Source: Candidatus Odinarchaeia archaeon (GTDB taxonomy: Archaea; Asgardarchaeota; Odinarchaeia; Odinarchaeales; Odinarchaeaceae). Taken from it: a stretch of 15,933 nt of DNA. The notes below the pieces were generated by a model. That model saw only the letters and a program-made list of their open reading frames with translations. It was not told where the DNA came from and did no database searches. Below are positions 77 to 7,914 of this stretch, piece after piece (the stretch's first letter is position 1; every line of letters begins with the position of its first letter). The stretch spans positions 1-15,933 of the forward strand of contig JAHQXC010000026.1 of assembly GCA_029856525.1 (NCBI GenBank), given 5' to 3'. The position numbers and the translations under genes are program-made.

Positions 77-1078
77 TCAATTTAATTTCTTCACATAATA
101 GAAAGCATCATCCCCTACTCTCTTAACCTCTAAAATATTACTCGCTATAAGACGGTTTAAAACTTCAATAGCCGCACCCAGAGAAATATTCAAATCACTT
201 GTAATATCGATTATCCTACACGGTCTCCTGGTAAGTAGATCAAGTATCGTGTGCTCTGCGTCAACGCTACTCTTCCACTTCACTTTACGTCCACGCGCGT
301 CATGCACTCCGTAAACCCAAATCCTTTTCTCGCCAAGTTTACTATTTAACACATCAGCTGCTTTTTTAAGCTCCTCTAATGCAACTGGTTGAACAAAGCT
401 TTCAGCTGACGGCCTCCAAGGAGTGTAAAGTTGCACGATATGCGGGTTTATATCTAAAATACCATCAATCAGATTCACGTAGTATTCGCCTTCAATATTT
501 GAAAAACCTTGTTTAGTTCTCAGAAGCATGGTTTCTAAAGCTACAACACCTTTAGACCTCTCTTTAAGATTTTTAATACTGTCTTTTATCTCATTTAAAC
601 CGGGAAGACCTTTACAAGGCCTGTTAATTATTTTATATGCTCTCTCATCCCCTGCGTCGAATTTAGCGCTTACAAAGTCGAAATTCAGTAATGCTTGAAA
701 AACATCTTGACGTGGAATCAGAGAAGAATTAGTTAAAATACCTAGCGGTTTTCCACCGATAAGCTCACGTATATTATCCACTATTTCTGAGAGTGAAAGA
801 TTTAAGGTCGGCTCCCCTGTCCCGGAGATTGTAACGAAATCTATCGAATCTAATTCAATTCTACTTAAATACTCTTCTAAAGCCGCTCTCACCTGTTTAG
901 GTGTGGGAAGCTTGTTTTGAATCTCCTCCGGGTTTGAAACATACAGCTCAGTTCTCCCTAGCTGACAGTAAATGCAAGAGTAACTGCATTTCTTAGGCAG
1001 TGTAGTTACATCCACACCTAGTGAACGCCCGAATCTCCAAGACGGAACCGGCCCATAAATTAAACTCAAAATTAACAC
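77..1078 (-). CDS. Radical SAM Fe-S oxidoreductase (COG0731-like) with C-terminal winged-helix-like domain
   Basis: N-terminal YGPVPSWRFGRSLGVD family motif, CxxxCxxC (CSYSCIYC), SGTGEPTL, LTNSS and KFDAG. C-terminal ILDLLTRRP...AIEVLNRL looks wHTH-like. The true start may be TTG at 1069, preceded by GGTG. Confidence 0.9.
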   Translation of the reverse strand: MLILSLIYGPVPSWRFGRSLGVDVTTLPKKCSYSCIYCQLGRTELYVSNPEEIQNKLPTPKQVRAALEEYLSRIELDSIDFVTISGTGEPTLNLSLSEIVDNIRELIGGKPLGILTNSSLIPRQDVFQALLNFDFVSAKFDAGDERAYKIINRPCKGLPGLNEIKDSIKNLKERSKGVVALETMLLRTKQGFSNIEGEYYVNLIDGILDINPHIVQLYTPWRPSAESFVQPVALEELKKAADVLNSKLGEKRIWVYGVHDARGRKVKWKSSVDAEHTILDLLTRRPCRIIDITSDLNISLGAAIEVLNRLIASNILEVKRVGDDAFYYVKKLN

Positions 1079-1086
1079 CGCTACAA

Positions 1087-1896
1087 TTATTTATCTAATA
1101 TTTTAATAACCTCGTCAACCAGTTTTTCATAAGCCTGTTTAGATTCACTTTCACCCTTAGAAAGTATTAACGGCGTTCCGTTATCAGCCAGCTTAGAAGC
1201 CTCCGGGTCTAAAGGTATTTTAGCGAGCAAAACCGTGTTAAGATAGCTGGCTATCTTCTCCCCAGCGCCCTCGCCGAAAATATAGTATATGGAACCGCAG
1301 TTTGGACATTTAAAATAGCTCATATTCTCTACAACACCTAAAATAGGTATCCGTAGAATTTTAGCCATGTTACCCGCTTTATCCACGATAAACTCGGATA
1401 ACTGTGAAGGGTGAGTTACAAGTATTATTCCCTTAATCGATGGTATAAGCTGCATTATGCTTAAAGGCTCATCACCGGTTCCTGGAGGTAAATCTATTAG
1501 CAGGTAATCTAGACTCCCCCAATCAGCATCTGAGAGAAAACGTTTAATCATATTCCCTTTCATAGGACCACGCCAGATCACAGGCATAGTCTTATCTGGA
1601 AGCATTAAATCAATCGCTAAAACTTTAACTCCGAGTAACCCGCTCGGTAAAATCAGAGAATTATCCGCGCCATATAAGCCTTCACTAACCCCTAGCATCT
1701 TTGAAACGGAAGGCCCGTGAAAGTCGGCGTCGAAAACACCTACCTTAAAACCGCGGCTAGCTAAACCTACAGCGAGATTAACCGTCACAGTGCTTTTACC
1801 GACACCGCCCTTACCGCTCATAACAGCGATAATATTCTTCACAGAGCTTAAACGTTTAGTTAAACTCTCATCCTCAAGCTTACTCCCTGAGCTCAT
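1087..1896 (-). CDS. mrp: Mrp/NBP35 (ApbC) family P-loop ATPase, Fe-S cluster carrier
   Basis: Deviant Walker A SGKGGVGKST, DADFHGPS, VIWRGP, DLPPGTGD and the ENMSYFKCPNCG CxxC motif. GGAG SD upstream. An 8-nt gap to the next gene suggests an operon. Confidence 0.95.
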   Translation of the reverse strand: MSSGSKLEDESLTKRLSSVKNIIAVMSGKGGVGKSTVTVNLAVGLASRGFKVGVFDADFHGPSVSKMLGVSEGLYGADNSLILPSGLLGVKVLAIDLMLPDKTMPVIWRGPMKGNMIKRFLSDADWGSLDYLLIDLPPGTGDEPLSIMQLIPSIKGIILVTHPSQLSEFIVDKAGNMAKILRIPILGVVENMSYFKCPNCGSIYYIFGEGAGEKIASYLNTVLLAKIPLDPEASKLADNGTPLILSKGESESKQAYEKLVDEVIKILDK

Positions 1897-1942
1897 AAAA
1901 ACAACTCCCTTAATAGATACTTAAACAGTTAGAGTTTAAACA

Positions 1943-1972
1943 TATAAATATTTTGTGTAAAAGCACAAAATA
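1943..1972 (-). promoter_or_regulatory. mrp promoter (TTTATA box 1948-1943) with adjacent 9-bp perfect inverted repeat
   Basis: TATTTTGTG (1949-1957), a 6-nt spacer, then CACAAAATA (1964-1972), directly upstream of and overlapping the BRE position. TATA box lies ~47 nt before the ATG. Confidence 0.55.
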
Positions 1973-2235
1973 AATGGAGAAAAATGAGCGGATACAACTA
2001 AAACAAAAGTTTCAACCCTGTTTCCCTAGGTTATAGGCAGCAGAAATAAATATTGTGGAAACCTCTTAGAATTAGAGAATAGGTTTCAAGGAATAGTGTT
2101 TCAGTTTTTAACGAAATTTTATAATATGTCTTCATTAACTTTTATTTACTGAGATTTATATTTCAGATTCTTCCGGACGGTTATATGATTCGCTTGTTGA
2201 ACGCAGTAAAAGTTTAAAGATGAATATTAAAATTT

Positions 2236-2928
2236 TTATCTTGCTCTGCTTATTCTCGGCCCTATTAGAGTCCAGAGCCATTCTACGAATTCTCTTAGGT
2301 TTTTGGTTTGAATATATACTTCCCCCGGTCCTTTTATCTCTGTTACTAGGCCTTCTCCACCTAGTAGGGTTGATTTTAATCCGCCGAATTTTCTCACCGT
2401 GTACTCGCATGTATTCGTGAATGCGACTAAATGATAGTTGTCTACTATGATGCTTTCACCCGGTTTTAGCGTATGCTTGTCTAGGGCTCCGAAACTGTTT
2501 AAAAACACTTGGCCTTCCCCTTCAACTTTGATCATGAATAAGCTTTGACCGAATATCCCTTTCACGAAACCCTGCCATTTTGTATCCAGCTCTACACCTG
2601 GTGTTGAAGCGATGTAAGCTGACTGCTGGATTATATAACCGTTTTTAGCGTTCACATCTAGTTTCACAATATCTCCTAATGGTGCGGATACTAATCCTAT
2701 TTCACCTGGACCGCCGCGTGCAGTATAGTCGTTAACAAAGAATGATTGCTGACCTAGTATAGCTACTTTAAGAGATTTTAAAATTCCCTCCTCTCTTTTC
2801 CTTGTTTTAATCTCCAGGTTAGGGGTCATATAAGTCATAGCGCCGGCTTCAGCTGTTATCGTCTCCTCGGGTTTAAGTTTAACTACTAGCATTGAATAAG
2901 AAGGACTATACTTTATCTCATAATCCAT
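2236..2928 (-). CDS. AIM24 / TIGR00266 family protein
   Basis: Typical motifs: L.P.E.I.AEAGAM..M, G.SFF.N.Y, G.V.L.SFG, VDN.HLVAF, GGEGLV..I.GPG.V..QT. SD GGAGGT at 2940-2935. Confidence 0.92.
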   Translation of the reverse strand: MDYEIKYSPSYSMLVVKLKPEETITAEAGAMTYMTPNLEIKTRKREEGILKSLKVAILGQQSFFVNDYTARGGPGEIGLVSAPLGDIVKLDVNAKNGYIIQQSAYIASTPGVELDTKWQGFVKGIFGQSLFMIKVEGEGQVFLNSFGALDKHTLKPGESIIVDNYHLVAFTNTCEYTVRKFGGLKSTLLGGEGLVTEIKGPGEVYIQTKNLREFVEWLWTLIGPRISRAR

Positions 2929-3037
2929 TCAAATACCTCCAGAATACTTTTATACTATTAACTTATAGGCTGATCATCTTATAAATTGTTTAGGAGAATA
3001 GTAGGAAAAGGGAATTATGAAATTTTAACTGGCATGG

Positions 3038-4624
3038 TTATCTTGCGATAACGGAGACTAAGGCTTTCATCAACGGTTTACCGGGTTTAGTTAAATCCAC
3101 GTTTCTAAGCATTGTAAGCATCTGCTCAGGATGATTTCCTATTTTATCTATGAATCTTATGGTTTCATCTGATAGTCTTGAGAAAAGCTTGTTTAAGAAG
3201 ACTTGTGTTAGAGAGGCTTTCGCACCGGATGTTACGTGTTTAATATATTTTAAGGCGAAGGCGGCGCTGAGCTTCCAGCTTCTAGTTACAAGCTCCCAGC
3301 GTGCATCATTCATAAGATATGTTTTAAAGAACTCTTCACCGCTTAGAGCGCTGATACCTATAGGTATGAAGAATAACGGGAAGAACCAGGCGGGTGTGCC
3401 TTTAAGATCGTCTAAAAGTTCTAGTGTAAGCATTATGTCATCATCTGTCTCCTCAGGTAAACCTGTGATCATTGTTATGCAAGGATACCAGTAGACGTCT
3501 TTAAGAATCTGGCAGGCTTCCACCACTACTTCATGCCATTCCTGAGGTGTATAGGGGAGAACCTTGCCGCGCATGTATTTTTCAAGTAAACGTGGACTGC
3601 CTGTCTCTAAACCTATTTGAGGCCCAATCCACGGCTCTTTCTCGTTAACACCCATGTAATAGTTTAATTCTTGAATTGGTTTTTCACCAGCCAGCTTCAA
3701 AGTGCTGAAGTTAACGTGAGTGGATACTATTTTATCCACTCCAGGTATGCTTCTAAGTGTTTGAAGAAGTTTTACTATAGCTGGTATGTTAAGTTCCCGG
3801 AAACCGTTCGCCCCGTATCTTAACCAGTCTTCGCTTAGAAGATACAGGTTTTTCTCCCCTGCGGCTATGCTTAACTTAGCCTCCCTCTCTATTATATCTA
3901 GGGGGATACTTCTCCATGGAACCTGGGTTGGACCGCAGAATCTGCACCCTCTACCGCAGCCTTCTGTTATTTGAACGAAACCGCATCTAGCCGGTCCTAG
4001 AATCGGGTAGATTTGATCAGGTTTAGGCGGTGTAGCTTTAACCACCGATGGGACAGATTCGCCTTTAATGAGTTTACCTACTATTTCAGGGAAGGTGACT
4101 TCAGCCTGCCCATAGTATCTTACGTCTATGCCTAATAGTTCAGCCTCTCTATCAGTAACCTGCCAGGATCCAGGGCCTCCCAGAATAACTTTGAAACCAT
4201 ATTTTTCTTTAAGAGGTTTAATCTTCTTCATTAATGAGAGGAAAGCTAACTGTGTTGCTGGTTTACCTCCTCCTAGAAGATGGCGTAAAGTCCATGACAC
4301 GGGGCCGCGGCCCATCGGGTCGACAGCATCTATTCCTATTATCTTCGTCTCCTTGGAGACTGCTTCCTCCAGTTTAGAAGGGTGAATGAATTTTATATCA
4401 CTTCTATTGTAACCGTTATTAACTAGGGCTGCTTCAACTTTTCTCAGAGAGTATGGGGGGGCTAAAACTTCACCGTTTACCATTCTAGGGCGTGGGCATA
4501 TAATATATTTTACTAGAAAGTTTGGGAGTATTCGACGGGGAGCGCATAATATGAACCCTAAGAAGGATGCCCCACCGTACTCTGTCATAAGGGTTTCATC
4601 AGCGGTTAAGATTATTCGGCTCAT
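3038..4624 (-). CDS. Cobalamin-binding-domain radical SAM protein (archaeal family)
   Basis: N-terminal APPYSLRKVEAAL and Rossmann-like VILGGPGSWQ region. CxxxCxxC in ITEGCGRGCRFC, plus GLETGS and MITGLPEET. SD GGAGG at 4634-4630. Confidence 0.88.
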   Translation of the reverse strand: MSRIILTADETLMTEYGGASFLGFILCAPRRILPNFLVKYIICPRPRMVNGEVLAPPYSLRKVEAALVNNGYNRSDIKFIHPSKLEEAVSKETKIIGIDAVDPMGRGPVSWTLRHLLGGGKPATQLAFLSLMKKIKPLKEKYGFKVILGGPGSWQVTDREAELLGIDVRYYGQAEVTFPEIVGKLIKGESVPSVVKATPPKPDQIYPILGPARCGFVQITEGCGRGCRFCGPTQVPWRSIPLDIIEREAKLSIAAGEKNLYLLSEDWLRYGANGFRELNIPAIVKLLQTLRSIPGVDKIVSTHVNFSTLKLAGEKPIQELNYYMGVNEKEPWIGPQIGLETGSPRLLEKYMRGKVLPYTPQEWHEVVVEACQILKDVYWYPCITMITGLPEETDDDIMLTLELLDDLKGTPAWFFPLFFIPIGISALSGEEFFKTYLMNDARWELVTRSWKLSAAFALKYIKHVTSGAKASLTQVFLNKLFSRLSDETIRFIDKIGNHPEQMLTMLRNVDLTKPGKPLMKALVSVIAR

Positions 4625-4684
4625 AAGCTCCCTCCCATAGCGTTACGAGCTTTAAAAATCAGTTTTAATTAGAGAATTTAATCA

Positions 4685-4699
4685 TATAAATATATTTCG
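4685..4699 (-). promoter_or_regulatory. BRE/TATA promoter of the B12 radical SAM gene
   Basis: Minus strand reads CGAAATATATTTATA, ~60 nt upstream of ATG 4624. Confidence 0.5.
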
Positions 4700-4720
4700 A
4701 TATAGTTAGATACCTGTCCT

Positions 4721-6283
4721 TTATTTTTTAAATATCAAGTATAGCATTTTCTCTAGGAGAGGAGTGTTAAGAGAGGTTTGACTTTCAAATCTCCCCTTAT
4801 ACGCTTCTTTCTCTAAGCCTAGATCATAGCATGTAGTCTGCTCAATGTTAATAAGCAACCCCGGTGTTTTAAATTTTTCAAAGTCTGGTTGATGTTTCTC
4901 GTAAAATTGTTCACAGCAGCATCCGATGTAACCTTTCGAGCCGGCTTCATCTAGTTCAGCTAGCTTCTCTTCTAAATGCTCGTAGTTTACTATAGTGAAC
5001 GGTTTAAGATTATATTTTAAAGCAAGCTTGTAACCGTCGCCTACTGTACATAAACCGCATAGCGTGCACCCTTCTTTATGCCTGTACTCGCAGCCGACAA
5101 GCTTCGAACAGTAAGGTAATAGTAGAGTATCCACGCCTTTAGTGAGGAAATAATCGAGTTTCTCATTCACGAGAAAGAGGTTATTTATCTCACTGAGAGT
5201 TAAACCGTACCTGGTATATTTTACTCTTTCAACAGCCTCTTTGAATAAGAGTTTGAAGTCGCTTATTTTAACCCCTGGGATTTGAAACTCACGTCTACTT
5301 ATTTTAAGTAGAATCCTGTTTATTTCTCTCATATCGAGGGGTATATGCTTTAAACCAGCCTCTAAATCGTATATAATGCCGGGAGGGTAAGCGAAGAAGT
5401 CACCTGTGATGAAAGCTGATGTTATCGAGTTTAATTCAACGTCCACGGATAAAGCTAATCTAACAAGCCCGCCCGGGGTTTTCTTCAATGTGAAAACAGC
5501 GTTATCCTGGTTTCCAGCTGATCTGATCCCGTAAATCCATTCCCTTGATTTAAAATATGGGAGTTTGCGTAGAAACTCTCTTCTCTCAAATTCTGTAAGC
5601 TCCTGTTCTTCAAATTGTATTTGAAATTCTTCGCTGAACCCTTCTAAAATAGCCTTTTTAATCTCGTTATAAGAGGGGATATAACCTAGCTCCCATTTTA
5701 TAGTTGTCACCCGCTCTTTAAGACTGTCTATTTCTTTATCAGAGAGCTTTTTCACAGGTACTTTTAAAGCCCGGAGCATTCTGTTAACATCTAAATCAAC
5801 TAGCAGAGTACCTTGAAACATGAAAGCCCCGCCGCTGCTGGTTCCCCCTGTCCCGCTTATCTTCCGATGACCTATCTCTATATCGTTCTTCGGTCGGAAG
5901 CGTGCTTTCAACCCTAGTTTACGAAGACCTTTAACCGCTGCCGTGCAAAGCTTCCTGTAAAGTAAGTCAACTTTATACGGGAATCTATCACCGTCTAGTG
6001 TAGCGAATAACTCCCAGCCAAGATGCTCCGGGCTGAAGTATATAGCCCCTCCTCCAGTAATCCTCCGGTTAATATCAATATTATTCTCATTACAGTATGA
6101 GATTCGAATCTCCTGTTCAACTGATTGATGATAACCTACGAGGGCTACAGGCGGGTTAAATCTTAGAAAACGGAAAGTATTAGGTATTAATCCTTCAGCT
6201 CGAGCATCTAGGATAACCCGGTCGAGGGTTATATTCTCAGCTCCTGTTAAAAGCCCTGTGTCTACAACTCTCCAAGTCTCCAT
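4721..6283 (-). CDS. lplA: Lipoate-protein ligase (LplA catalytic + LplB-like domain) fused to C-terminal Cys-rich DUF116-like domain
   Basis: RRITGGGAIY, PKNDI, catalytic-Lys motif RKISGTG and FQGTLL. The TPGGLVR...ITGDFF accessory domain follows. The C-terminal LLLPYCSK..C...CTLCGLC...GCCC...TTC region matches the DUF116 pattern. Confidence 0.88.
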   Translation of the reverse strand: METWRVVDTGLLTGAENITLDRVILDARAEGLIPNTFRFLRFNPPVALVGYHQSVEQEIRISYCNENNIDINRRITGGGAIYFSPEHLGWELFATLDGDRFPYKVDLLYRKLCTAAVKGLRKLGLKARFRPKNDIEIGHRKISGTGGTSSGGAFMFQGTLLVDLDVNRMLRALKVPVKKLSDKEIDSLKERVTTIKWELGYIPSYNEIKKAILEGFSEEFQIQFEEQELTEFERREFLRKLPYFKSREWIYGIRSAGNQDNAVFTLKKTPGGLVRLALSVDVELNSITSAFITGDFFAYPPGIIYDLEAGLKHIPLDMREINRILLKISRREFQIPGVKISDFKLLFKEAVERVKYTRYGLTLSEINNLFLVNEKLDYFLTKGVDTLLLPYCSKLVGCEYRHKEGCTLCGLCTVGDGYKLALKYNLKPFTIVNYEHLEEKLAELDEAGSKGYIGCCCEQFYEKHQPDFEKFKTPGLLINIEQTTCYDLGLEKEAYKGRFESQTSLNTPLLEKMLYLIFKK

Positions 6284-6312
6284 TTAAGATCATGAAAAAA
6301 TTAAAAAAACAG

Positions 6313-6321
6313 TATATAAAA
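6313..6321 (-). promoter_or_regulatory. TATA box of the ligase gene (probably near-leaderless mRNA)
   Basis: TTTTATATA on the minus strand ~30 nt upstream of ATG 6283. No SD is present. Confidence 0.5.
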
Positions 6322-6330
6322 CTATTTTAA

Positions 6331-6492
6331 CTTTATCGGCGGGGTGAAAGACGAAAAATATTTATAGTATCCAATCTTCAAAAAGGATAGAGACGCCTGC
6401 TGACACGGAGCCTCCCCCGGTCGAAACACCGGCAAGCTCCATCATTGAAGCGGGAAACCCCATCCGATAGAGAGGGGCAGTTTATTATTCAA
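6331..6492 (+). mobile_element. Miniature non-coding IS200/IS605 (IS1341-type) derivative/remnant
   Basis: Left part CTTTATCGGCGGGG (6331-6344) is an imperfect inverted copy of CCCCATCCGATAGAG (6458-6472). The right part GAAGCGGGAAACCCC...GGGGCAGTT resembles archaeal tnpB right ends (GAAGCAGGAAGCCCC...GGGGTAGTTCAC). No tnpA/tnpB ORF. Ends are uncertain. Confidence 0.6.
6391..6485 (+). ncRNA. Candidate TnpB omega-RNA / sotRNA-like structured RNA
   Basis: 62% GC (56/90 over 6391-6480) within AT-rich flanks. Nested stems: CCUGCU 6396-6401 / AGCGGG 6449-6454; GGAGC 6407-6411 / GCUCC 6436-6440; CCGGU 6417-6421 / ACCGG 6428-6432. Terminal CCCC..GGGG hairpin at 6458-6477. BRE/TATA GAAAAATATTTATA lies ~25 nt upstream. 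Confidence 0.6.
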
Positions 6493-6515
6493 TGTAATCT
6501 TATACATCTTAGTGG

Positions 6516-7505
6516 TTGAAAATGAGTTTTCATAAGGAAGCGAGTGTAATATTTAACAGTCCACCCTACGAGTTCGCTGAATATTTACAACGTGCGTGGA
6601 GTCTTACAAGAGAGTGTTACGGACAGTGGATTAACTTTTACGCTCCTAGTATACTTGAATACGATGCGGAGGGTTTTAAAAAACCGGTTAAAAATATTTT
6701 TCAATCTGTTTCAGTTACAGGTAGAAGATGCCTGTTAATGTGTGAGCATTGTAAAGGAAGGCTTTTAGAATCCATGCATAGCGCTACAACACCTGAACAG
6801 CTTTTAAAACTCGGAGAAAGTCTTTACAATAACGGCTGCCGAGGCCTGTTAATCAGCGGGGGATCTGATTTAAATGGTTCAGTTCCTTTAAAACCTTTCA
6901 TAGAGAGCATAAGCCTTCTAAGGAAAAAATTTGGAATGAAGATCGCGGTGCACACGGGTTTAATAGACTATCAGACGGCGAGAATGCTTAAAGAAGCGGG
7001 TGTTGAATCCGCTATGATCGATATAATAGGTGACGAGGAGACTATAAGAGAAATATATCATTTAGATAAGAAACCCGGGGACTTTGAAAAAGCTTTAAAT
7101 AATTTAATCCAAGCAGGCTTAGAGGTGAGCCCCCATATAGTGGTGGGGTTGAATAAAGGTATGGTGAAAGGAGAGCTGAAAGCCTTAGAAATGATAAGTA
7201 AAAGTAAAGCTTCGAATATAGTTATCGTGGCTTTAAAACCTTTAGATCCTGGTGAGCTCGGCAACCGGGTGCCTAAACCATTAGAAATAGGGCGGATAAT
7301 CACGATTGCAAGGTTGATGAATCCCATGAAGAAAATTCTATTAGGATGCGCTAGACCAGGAGGGCTTCACAAGGTTAAAACAGATCTTCTCGCTATAAAA
7401 GCCGGCGTTAACGGGATCGCTTTCCCAACACAGGAGGCGTTAAACTACGCTGGAAAACTCGGGTTAAAAGAGAATTTTATCGGTTACTGCTGCTCTTTTA
7501 TTTAA
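6516..7505 (+). CDS. lipS1: Radical SAM protein of the LipS1 lipoyl synthase type (biotin-synthase-like)
   Basis: CxxxCxxC (CLLMCEHC), G.LISGG, AVHTG and PHIVVG. C-terminal GCARP and terminal YCCS match the GC(M/A)R and CC motifs described for Thermococcus LipS1. Adjacent to a lipoate ligase. Start may be ATG 6522. Confidence 0.8.
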   Translation: MKMSFHKEASVIFNSPPYEFAEYLQRAWSLTRECYGQWINFYAPSILEYDAEGFKKPVKNIFQSVSVTGRRCLLMCEHCKGRLLESMHSATTPEQLLKLGESLYNNGCRGLLISGGSDLNGSVPLKPFIESISLLRKKFGMKIAVHTGLIDYQTARMLKEAGVESAMIDIIGDEETIREIYHLDKKPGDFEKALNNLIQAGLEVSPHIVVGLNKGMVKGELKALEMISKSKASNIVIVALKPLDPGELGNRVPKPLEIGRIITIARLMNPMKKILLGCARPGGLHKVKTDLLAIKAGVNGIAFPTQEALNYAGKLGLKENFIGYCCSFI

Positions 7506-7587: not shown

Positions 7588-7914
7588 ATGAGCTATGTGA
7601 AAGTAGCTGAAAAATCTCAAATACCAGTCGGCGCGATGAAAACAGTTAAACTAGGAGAGAAAGAAATTCTAATAGCTAACGTGAATGGAAAATATTATGC
7701 GATAGGAGGCAGATGCACGCATAAAGGCGGGGATCTTGGAAAAGGTATATTAGAAGGAGCGATAGTAACTTGCCCAAGACATAAAGCACAGTTCGATGTA
7801 ACCACAGGGAAATCTGTTTCGAAGCCGAAAATACCACTCAGCAAACCTTTAGAAGATGAGCCTGTATACAGGGTTAAAGTTGAAGGCGAAGACATTCTAA
7901 TATTACAGGAGTAA
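7588..7914 (+). CDS. Rieske [2Fe-2S] ferredoxin (NirD/dioxygenase-ferredoxin-like)
   Basis: CxH...CxxH ligands (CTHKGGDL...CPRHKAQFDVTTG). SD GGAG upstream. Confidence 0.93.
   Translation: MSYVKVAEKSQIPVGAMKTVKLGEKEILIANVNGKYYAIGGRCTHKGGDLGKGILEGAIVTCPRHKAQFDVTTGKSVSKPKIPLSKPLEDEPVYRVKVEGEDILILQE

Follow-up and report, generated by a model that had tools for sequence, protein, structure and literature searches.

A DUF116-fused lipoate ligase and a divergent LipS1-like gene in Odinarchaeum: probable half of a second, split lipoate-assembly module

The window analysed here is the whole stretch of 15,933 nucleotides that forms contig C24 (JAHQXC010000026.1) of a 1.32-Mb, 93% complete assembly (GCA_029856525.1) of the Asgard archaeon Odinarchaeum. 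Two genes stand head to head in it: on the minus strand, at 4721-6283, a lipoate:protein ligase of 520 residues in which three Pfam domains are fused (Lpl(AB)-DUF116), and on the plus strand, at 6516-7505, a radical S-adenosylmethionine (SAM) protein of 329 residues that resembles LipS1 by its match to NCBIfam NF053742 and by its motifs, here called LipS1b. An earlier note made from the letters of the window had described a lipoate ligase facing a LipS1-like radical SAM protein with GCARP and terminal CC motifs, and Pfam, NF053742 and the motifs all confirm that description. In our reading, the pair is probably one half of a second lipoate-assembly module in Odinarchaeum, which comprises the fused ligase, LipS1b, a second LipS2 (LipS2b) and a LipT-like flavoprotein.

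The ligase catalytic domain (LplA-B_cat, PF21948, 157 bits) covers residues 15-216, at positions 5636-6241, and includes the catalytic lysine Lys141 in the motif RKISGTGG, invariant in 24/24 aligned homologues. The complete protein is 87% identical to that of Ca. Odinarchaeum yellowstonii, while its catalytic domain shares 38% identity with the unfused LplA encoded on contig C9 of the same assembly, and a comparison with one congener over 415 codons gave a ratio of nonsynonymous to synonymous substitution rates (dN/dS) of 0.09. With 160.6 bits on TIGR00545, under the 280-bit cut-off, the fused ligase is, as judged from its sequence, a member of the wider ligase superfamily outside the TIGR00545 equivalog. 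The catalytic domain is followed by an LplB-like accessory domain (Lip_prot_lig_C, PF10437; residues 269-343, positions 5255-5479). This match is borderline, with 23.8 bits against a cut-off of 24 on an alignment that spans 82 of the 86 profile positions, and the NCBIfam LplB model gives 40.6 bits (cut-off 65); PF10437 is present in the precomputed annotation of many fused-ligase homologues. An accessory domain of the LplB type sets ligases apart from octanoyltransferases.

The C-terminal part of the protein is a DUF116 domain (PF01976, 35.2 bits, cut-off 25; residues 364-487, positions 4823-5194), the only one that a profile search recovered from the contigs of this genome. Its eight cysteines (C392, C398, C406-x2-C409-x2-C412, the pair C456-C457, and C485) are invariant in 24/24 and 79/79 aligned sequences. 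An AlphaFold2 model of the domain (mean predicted local distance difference test score, pLDDT, 91) has an alpha/beta flavodoxin-like topology, and the cysteines map to the loops after three beta-strands. A sequence-profile search of the PDB with the domain returned no match, Foldseek with the model returned nothing at E <= 0.001, and a wide VIA-align search returned only generic Rossmann, flavodoxin and receiver folds (Z <= 7.3). A metal-binding, electron-transfer role was predicted for DUF116 by Makarova et al. in 2015 (PMC5898192); in the literature on DUF116/PF01976 we found no paper describing a fusion with a ligase. We infer that the domain binds iron-sulfur clusters and supplies both sulfur-inserting enzymes of the pathway with electrons or clusters.

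The likely true start of lipS1b is the ATG at 6522. The encoded protein shows the radical SAM motif C72-x3-C76-x2-C79, GCARP at 277 and the CC pair at 325-326; the LipS1 encoded on C9 displays the same pattern with GCMRP in place of GCARP, and the two proteins are 35% identical (the paralogues of the two modules are 35-38% identical). The best NCBIfam match of LipS1b is the LipS1 model NF053742, with 221.6 bits against a cut-off of 230. Therefore, we filed it as a LipS1-like protein of a DUF116-linked subfamily and not as an equivalog. In a LipS1 tree from a quick search, rooted on LipS2 along a long branch and built without BioB sequences, the canonical copies beside LplA/LplB form one clade with 99% support in the Shimodaira-Hasegawa-like approximate likelihood-ratio test (SH-aLRT), and LipS1b falls outside that clade, among LipS1 genes that neighbour DUF116 ligases. 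The split between LipS1 and LipS2 has 100% SH-aLRT support and LipS1b sits on the LipS1 side, and it scores 221.6 bits on NF053742 versus 44 bits on BioB. Both window genes are under purifying selection (dN/dS 0.08-0.12 at a dS of ~1, the range obtained for lipS1b as well). By analogy with LipS1, LipS1b would act as a sulfur insertase at C6 of the 8-mercapto-octanoyl protein.

The 232 bp between the two genes (6284-6515, no strand) make up a divergent promoter spacer, which contains a GC-rich dispersed repeat of ~160 bp. The repeat (6317-6480) separates the start codon of lipS1b from the shared promoter region and has at least 15 further copies on other contigs (72-91% identity); three congeners have a spacer of only ~80 bp and lack the repeat at this site. 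A search of the window and the spacer against Rfam gave no match. We also considered a structured RNA in the GC-rich piece and rejected it, given weak folding z-scores (-1.6 and -1.1) and the dispersed nature of the piece.

No lipS2 is found in the window, as the earlier note had stated: a six-frame regular-expression search detects no LipS2 motif, and the LipS2 hidden Markov model (HMM) reaches only 14.8 bits, on lipS1b itself. Its further observation that the window has no GcvH or lipoyl-domain gene also stands, since the GCV_H and Biotin_lipoyl HMMs match a single contig of the whole assembly, C96. The note had left two options, that lipS2 lies elsewhere or that LipS1 and the ligase-DUF116 fusion form a reduced synthase, and it was the cautious option that proved right. 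Contig C9 encodes a canonical archaeal operon, lipS2-lplA-lplB-lipS1, in which both radical SAM proteins score above their cut-offs (LipS2 336.2 bits, cut-off 270, motif TSGCHGCNRP; LipS1 286.6 bits). A second LipS2-like gene, lipS2b, is located on contig C79 (250.0 bits, under the cut-off of 270). Its motif reads TSGC-x8-CNRP, with a six-residue insert between the two cysteines, both of which are kept in 63/63 sequences. Because of this insert a strict LipS2 motif search would miss LipS2b, and the pattern TxGCPxC(N/D)RP on which the earlier note relied as a LipS2 screen would indeed have overlooked the LipS2 of the module.

Only 2 bp after lipS2b starts a flavoprotein gene, whose product just meets the geranylgeranyl-reductase family model TIGR02032 (158.9 bits, cut-off 158.8); LipT is a member of the same family of geranylgeranyl-reductase-like flavin adenine dinucleotide (FAD) proteins (PMC10332631). 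Across the genome, LipS1 HMM matches are confined to C9 and the window, LipS2 matches to C9 and C79, and LplA-B_cat domains to C9 and the window. A profile search of the genome for LipA found none (best match 17.5 bits, cut-off 310), and one for LipB or LipM found neither, as there is no third LplA/LipB-type domain. Of the genes that the earlier note proposed to look for in the rest of the genome, lipS2 (twice), a LipT-like flavoprotein gene and one gcvH of the GcvH2 type are there, and lipA was not found. Taken together, the Odinarchaeum genome holds all four functions of the sLpl(AB)-LipS1/LipS2-LipT system, the ligase and LipS1b in the window and LipS2b and the flavoprotein on C79.

The same four genes cluster in other species, and therefore we regard the window pair and the C79 pair as halves of one conserved module. 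The combination of LplA-B_cat and DUF116 occurs in more than 120 protein clusters at ~50% identity, and relatives of the fused ligase are present in at least 581 species of a one-genome-per-species collection, among them Chloroflexota, Thermodesulfobacteriota, Thor-, Jord- and Bathyarchaeia, Nitrososphaeria, Thermoplasmata and others; a tblastn search of plasmids returned only ordinary ligases (~30% identity) and no fused form. We ran tblastn with the proteins encoded in the window and on contigs C79, C9 and C96 against 80 fused-ligase loci: 61 have LipS1-like and 65 LipS2-like genes, the flavoprotein is encoded in 43, and 23 have a GcvH-like gene. Among the 41 of these loci, all from other species, that have at least 4.5 kb on each side of the ligase, 40 have LipS2 no more than 5 kb from the fused ligase, and 38 have both LipS1 and LipS2 at that range; the fused ligase is no oddity of one lineage. 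The usual archaeal order is lipS2-lipS1-ligase-flavoprotein, and a single operon unites all four genes in most other lineages. Where complete, the radical SAM genes of the loci are closer to the copies of the window and C79 (b-type) than to those of C9 (a-type), with one LipS1 (locus L096) as the lone exception. Five module loci from Thermoplasmata or 'Methanobacteriota' metagenome-assembled genomes (L083, L087, L052, L050 and L081) additionally encode an unfused Lpl(AB)-like ligase, which makes two ligases per cluster, and directly upstream of lipS2 they encode a divergent GcvH-like protein with the motif ESAKF (68-79 bits on GcvH models).

The separation of the module in Odinarchaeum is real and not an assembly artefact, because it is seen within single contigs of congeners: in a complete one-contig genome of 1,418,269 bp, lipS1b is at 1,211,353 and lipS2b at 1,246,270 (34 kb apart), and a single contig of a second congener has them 29 kb apart. 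The genes around lipS1b keep their order within the genus, all four module genes are intact in four congeneric genomes, and every congener examined has two LipS2 genes. Two genomes of a sister genus in the same order (G002 and G003) also have two LipS2 (~360 and ~220 bits), together with one detectable LipS1 (225-235 bits); as these genomes are 82-91% complete, the single LipS1 may reflect incompleteness or a real asymmetry.

On the model of the Thermococcus and sulfur-oxidiser systems, the ligase domain would adenylate octanoate or lipoate and attach it to the lysine of a GcvH-type protein, after which LipS2b would insert sulfur at C8 and LipS1b at C6, each using an auxiliary iron-sulfur cluster, with the flavoprotein providing the reducing equivalents. 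LipT has been proposed as an electron supplier (PMC10332631), and how the auxiliary clusters of LipS1 and LipS2 are regenerated is an acknowledged open question (PMC13692748). More tentatively, the eight cysteines of DUF116 might ligate one or two iron-sulfur clusters, and the domain might either supply the radical SAM clusters with electrons taken from the flavoprotein or rebuild the sacrificed auxiliary clusters; its fusion to the ligase would hold it close to the acylated substrate.

Several observations weigh against this explanation. The b-type LipS1 and LipS2 score below the NCBIfam cut-offs here and in other phyla (210-226 bits versus 230 for LipS1, where Thorarchaeota, Syntrophaceae and Anaerolineae proteins from the same module cover that whole range on NF053742, and 223-250 versus 270 for LipS2); LipS1b and LipS2b form a subfamily of their own, whose shared chemistry is only a presumption. 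An unfused ligase gene also occurs in 14/80 loci, so the chief ligase may be a protein other than the fused one. Two modules are kept in a genome of 1.3 Mb, and the folds that DUF116 resembles are generic ones of the Rossmann and flavodoxin type (best Z 7.3), its cluster binding being a prediction. As for the two modules, LipS1 was found in 72 of 101 sampled Asgard genomes and in two copies in 21, so Odinarchaeum is not alone in having two LipS1 genes.

The reduced synthase of the earlier note, in which LipS1 and the ligase-DUF116 fusion would build the lipoyl group without LipS2, drew on the absence of lipS2 from the window and on the thought that an extra cysteine-rich domain could in principle stand in for the second cluster-bearing subunit. 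We give it next to no chance. The canonical lipS2 on C9 refutes the LipS2-free proposal, a second LipS2-like gene lies on C79, every congener has the same two, and other species keep LipS2 next to the fused ligase, as described above. Moreover, LipS1 in vitro acts only on the 8-mercapto-octanoyl product of LipS2 (PMC13692748), which makes a LipS1-only route chemically unlikely. It is also very unlikely, if a shade less so, that the split module is a horizontally acquired relic out of use: the operon is broken up and, in this genome only, a mobile-looking repeat has come to lie between the shared promoter region and lipS1b, but the four genes are intact in four congeners and evolve at the low dN/dS given above. 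The sub-threshold scores, the six-residue insert in the auxiliary-cluster motif of LipS2b and the coexistence of a canonical module in the same small genome would fit a pair of enzymes that works with the DUF116 ligase to attach something other than lipoate, or whose target protein is unlike GcvH. Such a different chemistry seems to us improbable, because all catalytic and cluster motifs of the ligase, LipS1 and LipS2 are retained, GcvH-like genes are frequent neighbours, and many Asgard genomes have a b-type LipS1 and otherwise no LipS1 at all.

The question of which protein the second module serves leads to a further possibility, which refines the two-module explanation and does not exclude it: the DUF116-type module might lipoylate the non-canonical GcvH2 (lysine motif ETGKW), while the canonical operon serves the GcvH1 of glycine cleavage (ESVKA). 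Genes for GcvT and GcvP are present in this genome, and a profile search of it found no E2 component. The only GcvH found, on C96, is of the GcvH2 type (about 94 bits on TIGR00527, cut-off 115.85), is 95% identical to the GcvH2 of the complete congener, and contains no cysteine, unlike the LbpA-type acceptor with its two conserved cysteines. Three congeners have two paralogues each, GcvH1 passing TIGR00527 with 128 bits and GcvH2 staying below with 94.5. In the complete congener (G006), GcvH1 (L143:8188-8625) is flanked by genes for a NAD kinase, an F420 ligase-like protein and a Ras-family GTPase; in the present assembly canonical GcvH1 was not found, the syntenic region falling in the gap between the end of contig C112 and C12, whose end at this gap consists of 2.2 kb of unrelated sequence. 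Elsewhere, a GcvH-like gene neighbours 16 of the 41 well-flanked loci, and all six neighbours scanned (6/6) are below the TIGR00527 cut-off, most of them carrying E-x-G-K-W.

A dedicated acceptor would parallel the pairing of sLpl(AB) with LbpA and of Lpl(AB) with GcvH in sulfur oxidisers, and there is precedent for ligases that tell acceptors apart (bioRxiv 10.64898/2026.10.01.755906). Against it, GcvH2 adjoins neither module in Odinarchaeum, and many genomes hold the b-type module only, which must therefore serve all their acceptors. Across the 101 Asgard genomes, a rough eyeball tally at family level gave only a loose co-occurrence of GcvH2-like genes with b-type LipS1, several families having a GcvH2-like gene but no b-type LipS1 and several the reverse. 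Owing to this loose co-occurrence we keep the idea as a possibility with clearly less than an even chance. A bolder combination, in which DUF116 is the missing iron-sulfur partner of LipS1/LipS2-type lipoyl synthases (as a relay from the LipT-like flavoprotein or as a regenerator of auxiliary clusters) and, at the same time, the second module of Odinarchaeum serves GcvH2 in parallel to the canonical module with GcvH1, is more doubtful still, and we put it forward as speculation.

Among the other genes of the window, a small Rieske [2Fe-2S] ferredoxin (7588-7914, plus strand; PF00355, 66.7 bits) is encoded after lipS1b at a distance of 83 bp, in a position kept in two congeners. It is possible that this protein serves as an electron carrier for the split half-module; a Rieske match was found in only 2/80 fused-ligase loci elsewhere. 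Beyond the 3' end of the ligase gene, a run of minus-strand genes (77-4624) encodes a radical SAM protein with a B12 domain (528 residues), an AIM24/TIGR00266 protein, an iron-sulfur carrier ATPase of the Mrp/ApbC type and a radical SAM protein of 333 residues. The two radical SAM genes besides lipS1b (77-1078 and 3038-4624) are not LipS-like. The Mrp/ApbC carrier, AIM24, the B12-domain radical SAM protein and other neighbours in the window were considered as parts of the module and rejected, each being seen in 0-1/80 loci. On contig C79, the gene for the large subunit of ribonucleotide reductase (3854-7090) contains an intein, which bears a LAGLIDADG homing-endonuclease domain, and just upstream of lipS2b a 124-residue open reading frame (253-627) matches only the C-terminal part of a histone-deacetylase domain.

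The locus is thus one half of a split, otherwise ordinary member of a known pathway, and its ligase is an undescribed, DUF116-fused variant. A lipoyl synthase free of LipS2 would have been surprising; it does not exist here. Hundreds of species, most of them uncultured and many belonging to lineages known as anaerobes, encode the fusion, which places an orphan cysteine-rich domain in a clear pathway context. DUF116 becomes a candidate answer to the question, left open in a 2026 review, of how LipS1 and LipS2 are reduced and their sacrificial clusters rebuilt (PMC13692748). In addition, two modules and two GcvH paralogues in an Asgard genome of 1.3-1.4 Mb hint at parallel lines of lipoylation outside the sulfur oxidisers.

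The closest known counterpart is the sLpl(AB)-LipS1/LipS2-LipT system of sulfur oxidisers (Tanabe et al. 2023, PMC10332631), which has the same four functions, usually in one operon. Both there and here, an ATP-dependent Lpl(AB) ligase is combined with a pair of radical SAM sulfur insertases that resemble BioB and with an FAD protein resembling geranylgeranyl reductase; the same study already inferred that bacteria have exchanged such ligases with lineages of Asgard, Thermoplasmatota and Thermoproteota (PMC10332631). The sLpl(AB) of Hyphomicrobium measures ~360 residues, as estimated from a described deletion, and is without DUF116, whereas the present ligase adds a 170-residue part with the eight-cysteine DUF116. 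We considered whether Hyphomicrobium LipX could be a split-off DUF116 and discarded the idea; lipX, the gene after sLpl(AB), is described as a putative glutamine amidotransferase. By comparison with the published account of that system, the Odinarchaeum module further differs in being spread over two loci and in having a GcvH-like partner with no cysteines, unlike LbpA.

Thermococcus kodakarensis has, like Odinarchaeum, a two-enzyme lipoyl synthase, LipS1 (TK2109) and LipS2 (TK2248), together with LplA/LplB (TK1234/TK1908). Each of the two enzymes there carries a radical SAM and an auxiliary cluster, and sulfur is added at C8 and then at C6 of the ligase-loaded octanoyl protein (PMC13692748). 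The C9 operon is of this canonical archaeal type; in contrast, the window ligase is fused and not bipartite, the module includes a flavoprotein, and LipS1b falls outside the canonical clade. Finally, stand-alone DUF116 proteins of arCOG02078 (e.g. MMP0162; PMC5898192) belong to the same Pfam family and share the CxxCxxC motif, further cysteines and a predicted flavodoxin-like fold. They possess two N-terminal transmembrane helices and are encoded near sulfite or nitrite reductase or ArsA-like genes (PMC5898192), whereas the DUF116 of the window, with no transmembrane helices reported upstream of it, forms the C-terminus of a lipoate ligase within a lipoate-assembly module.

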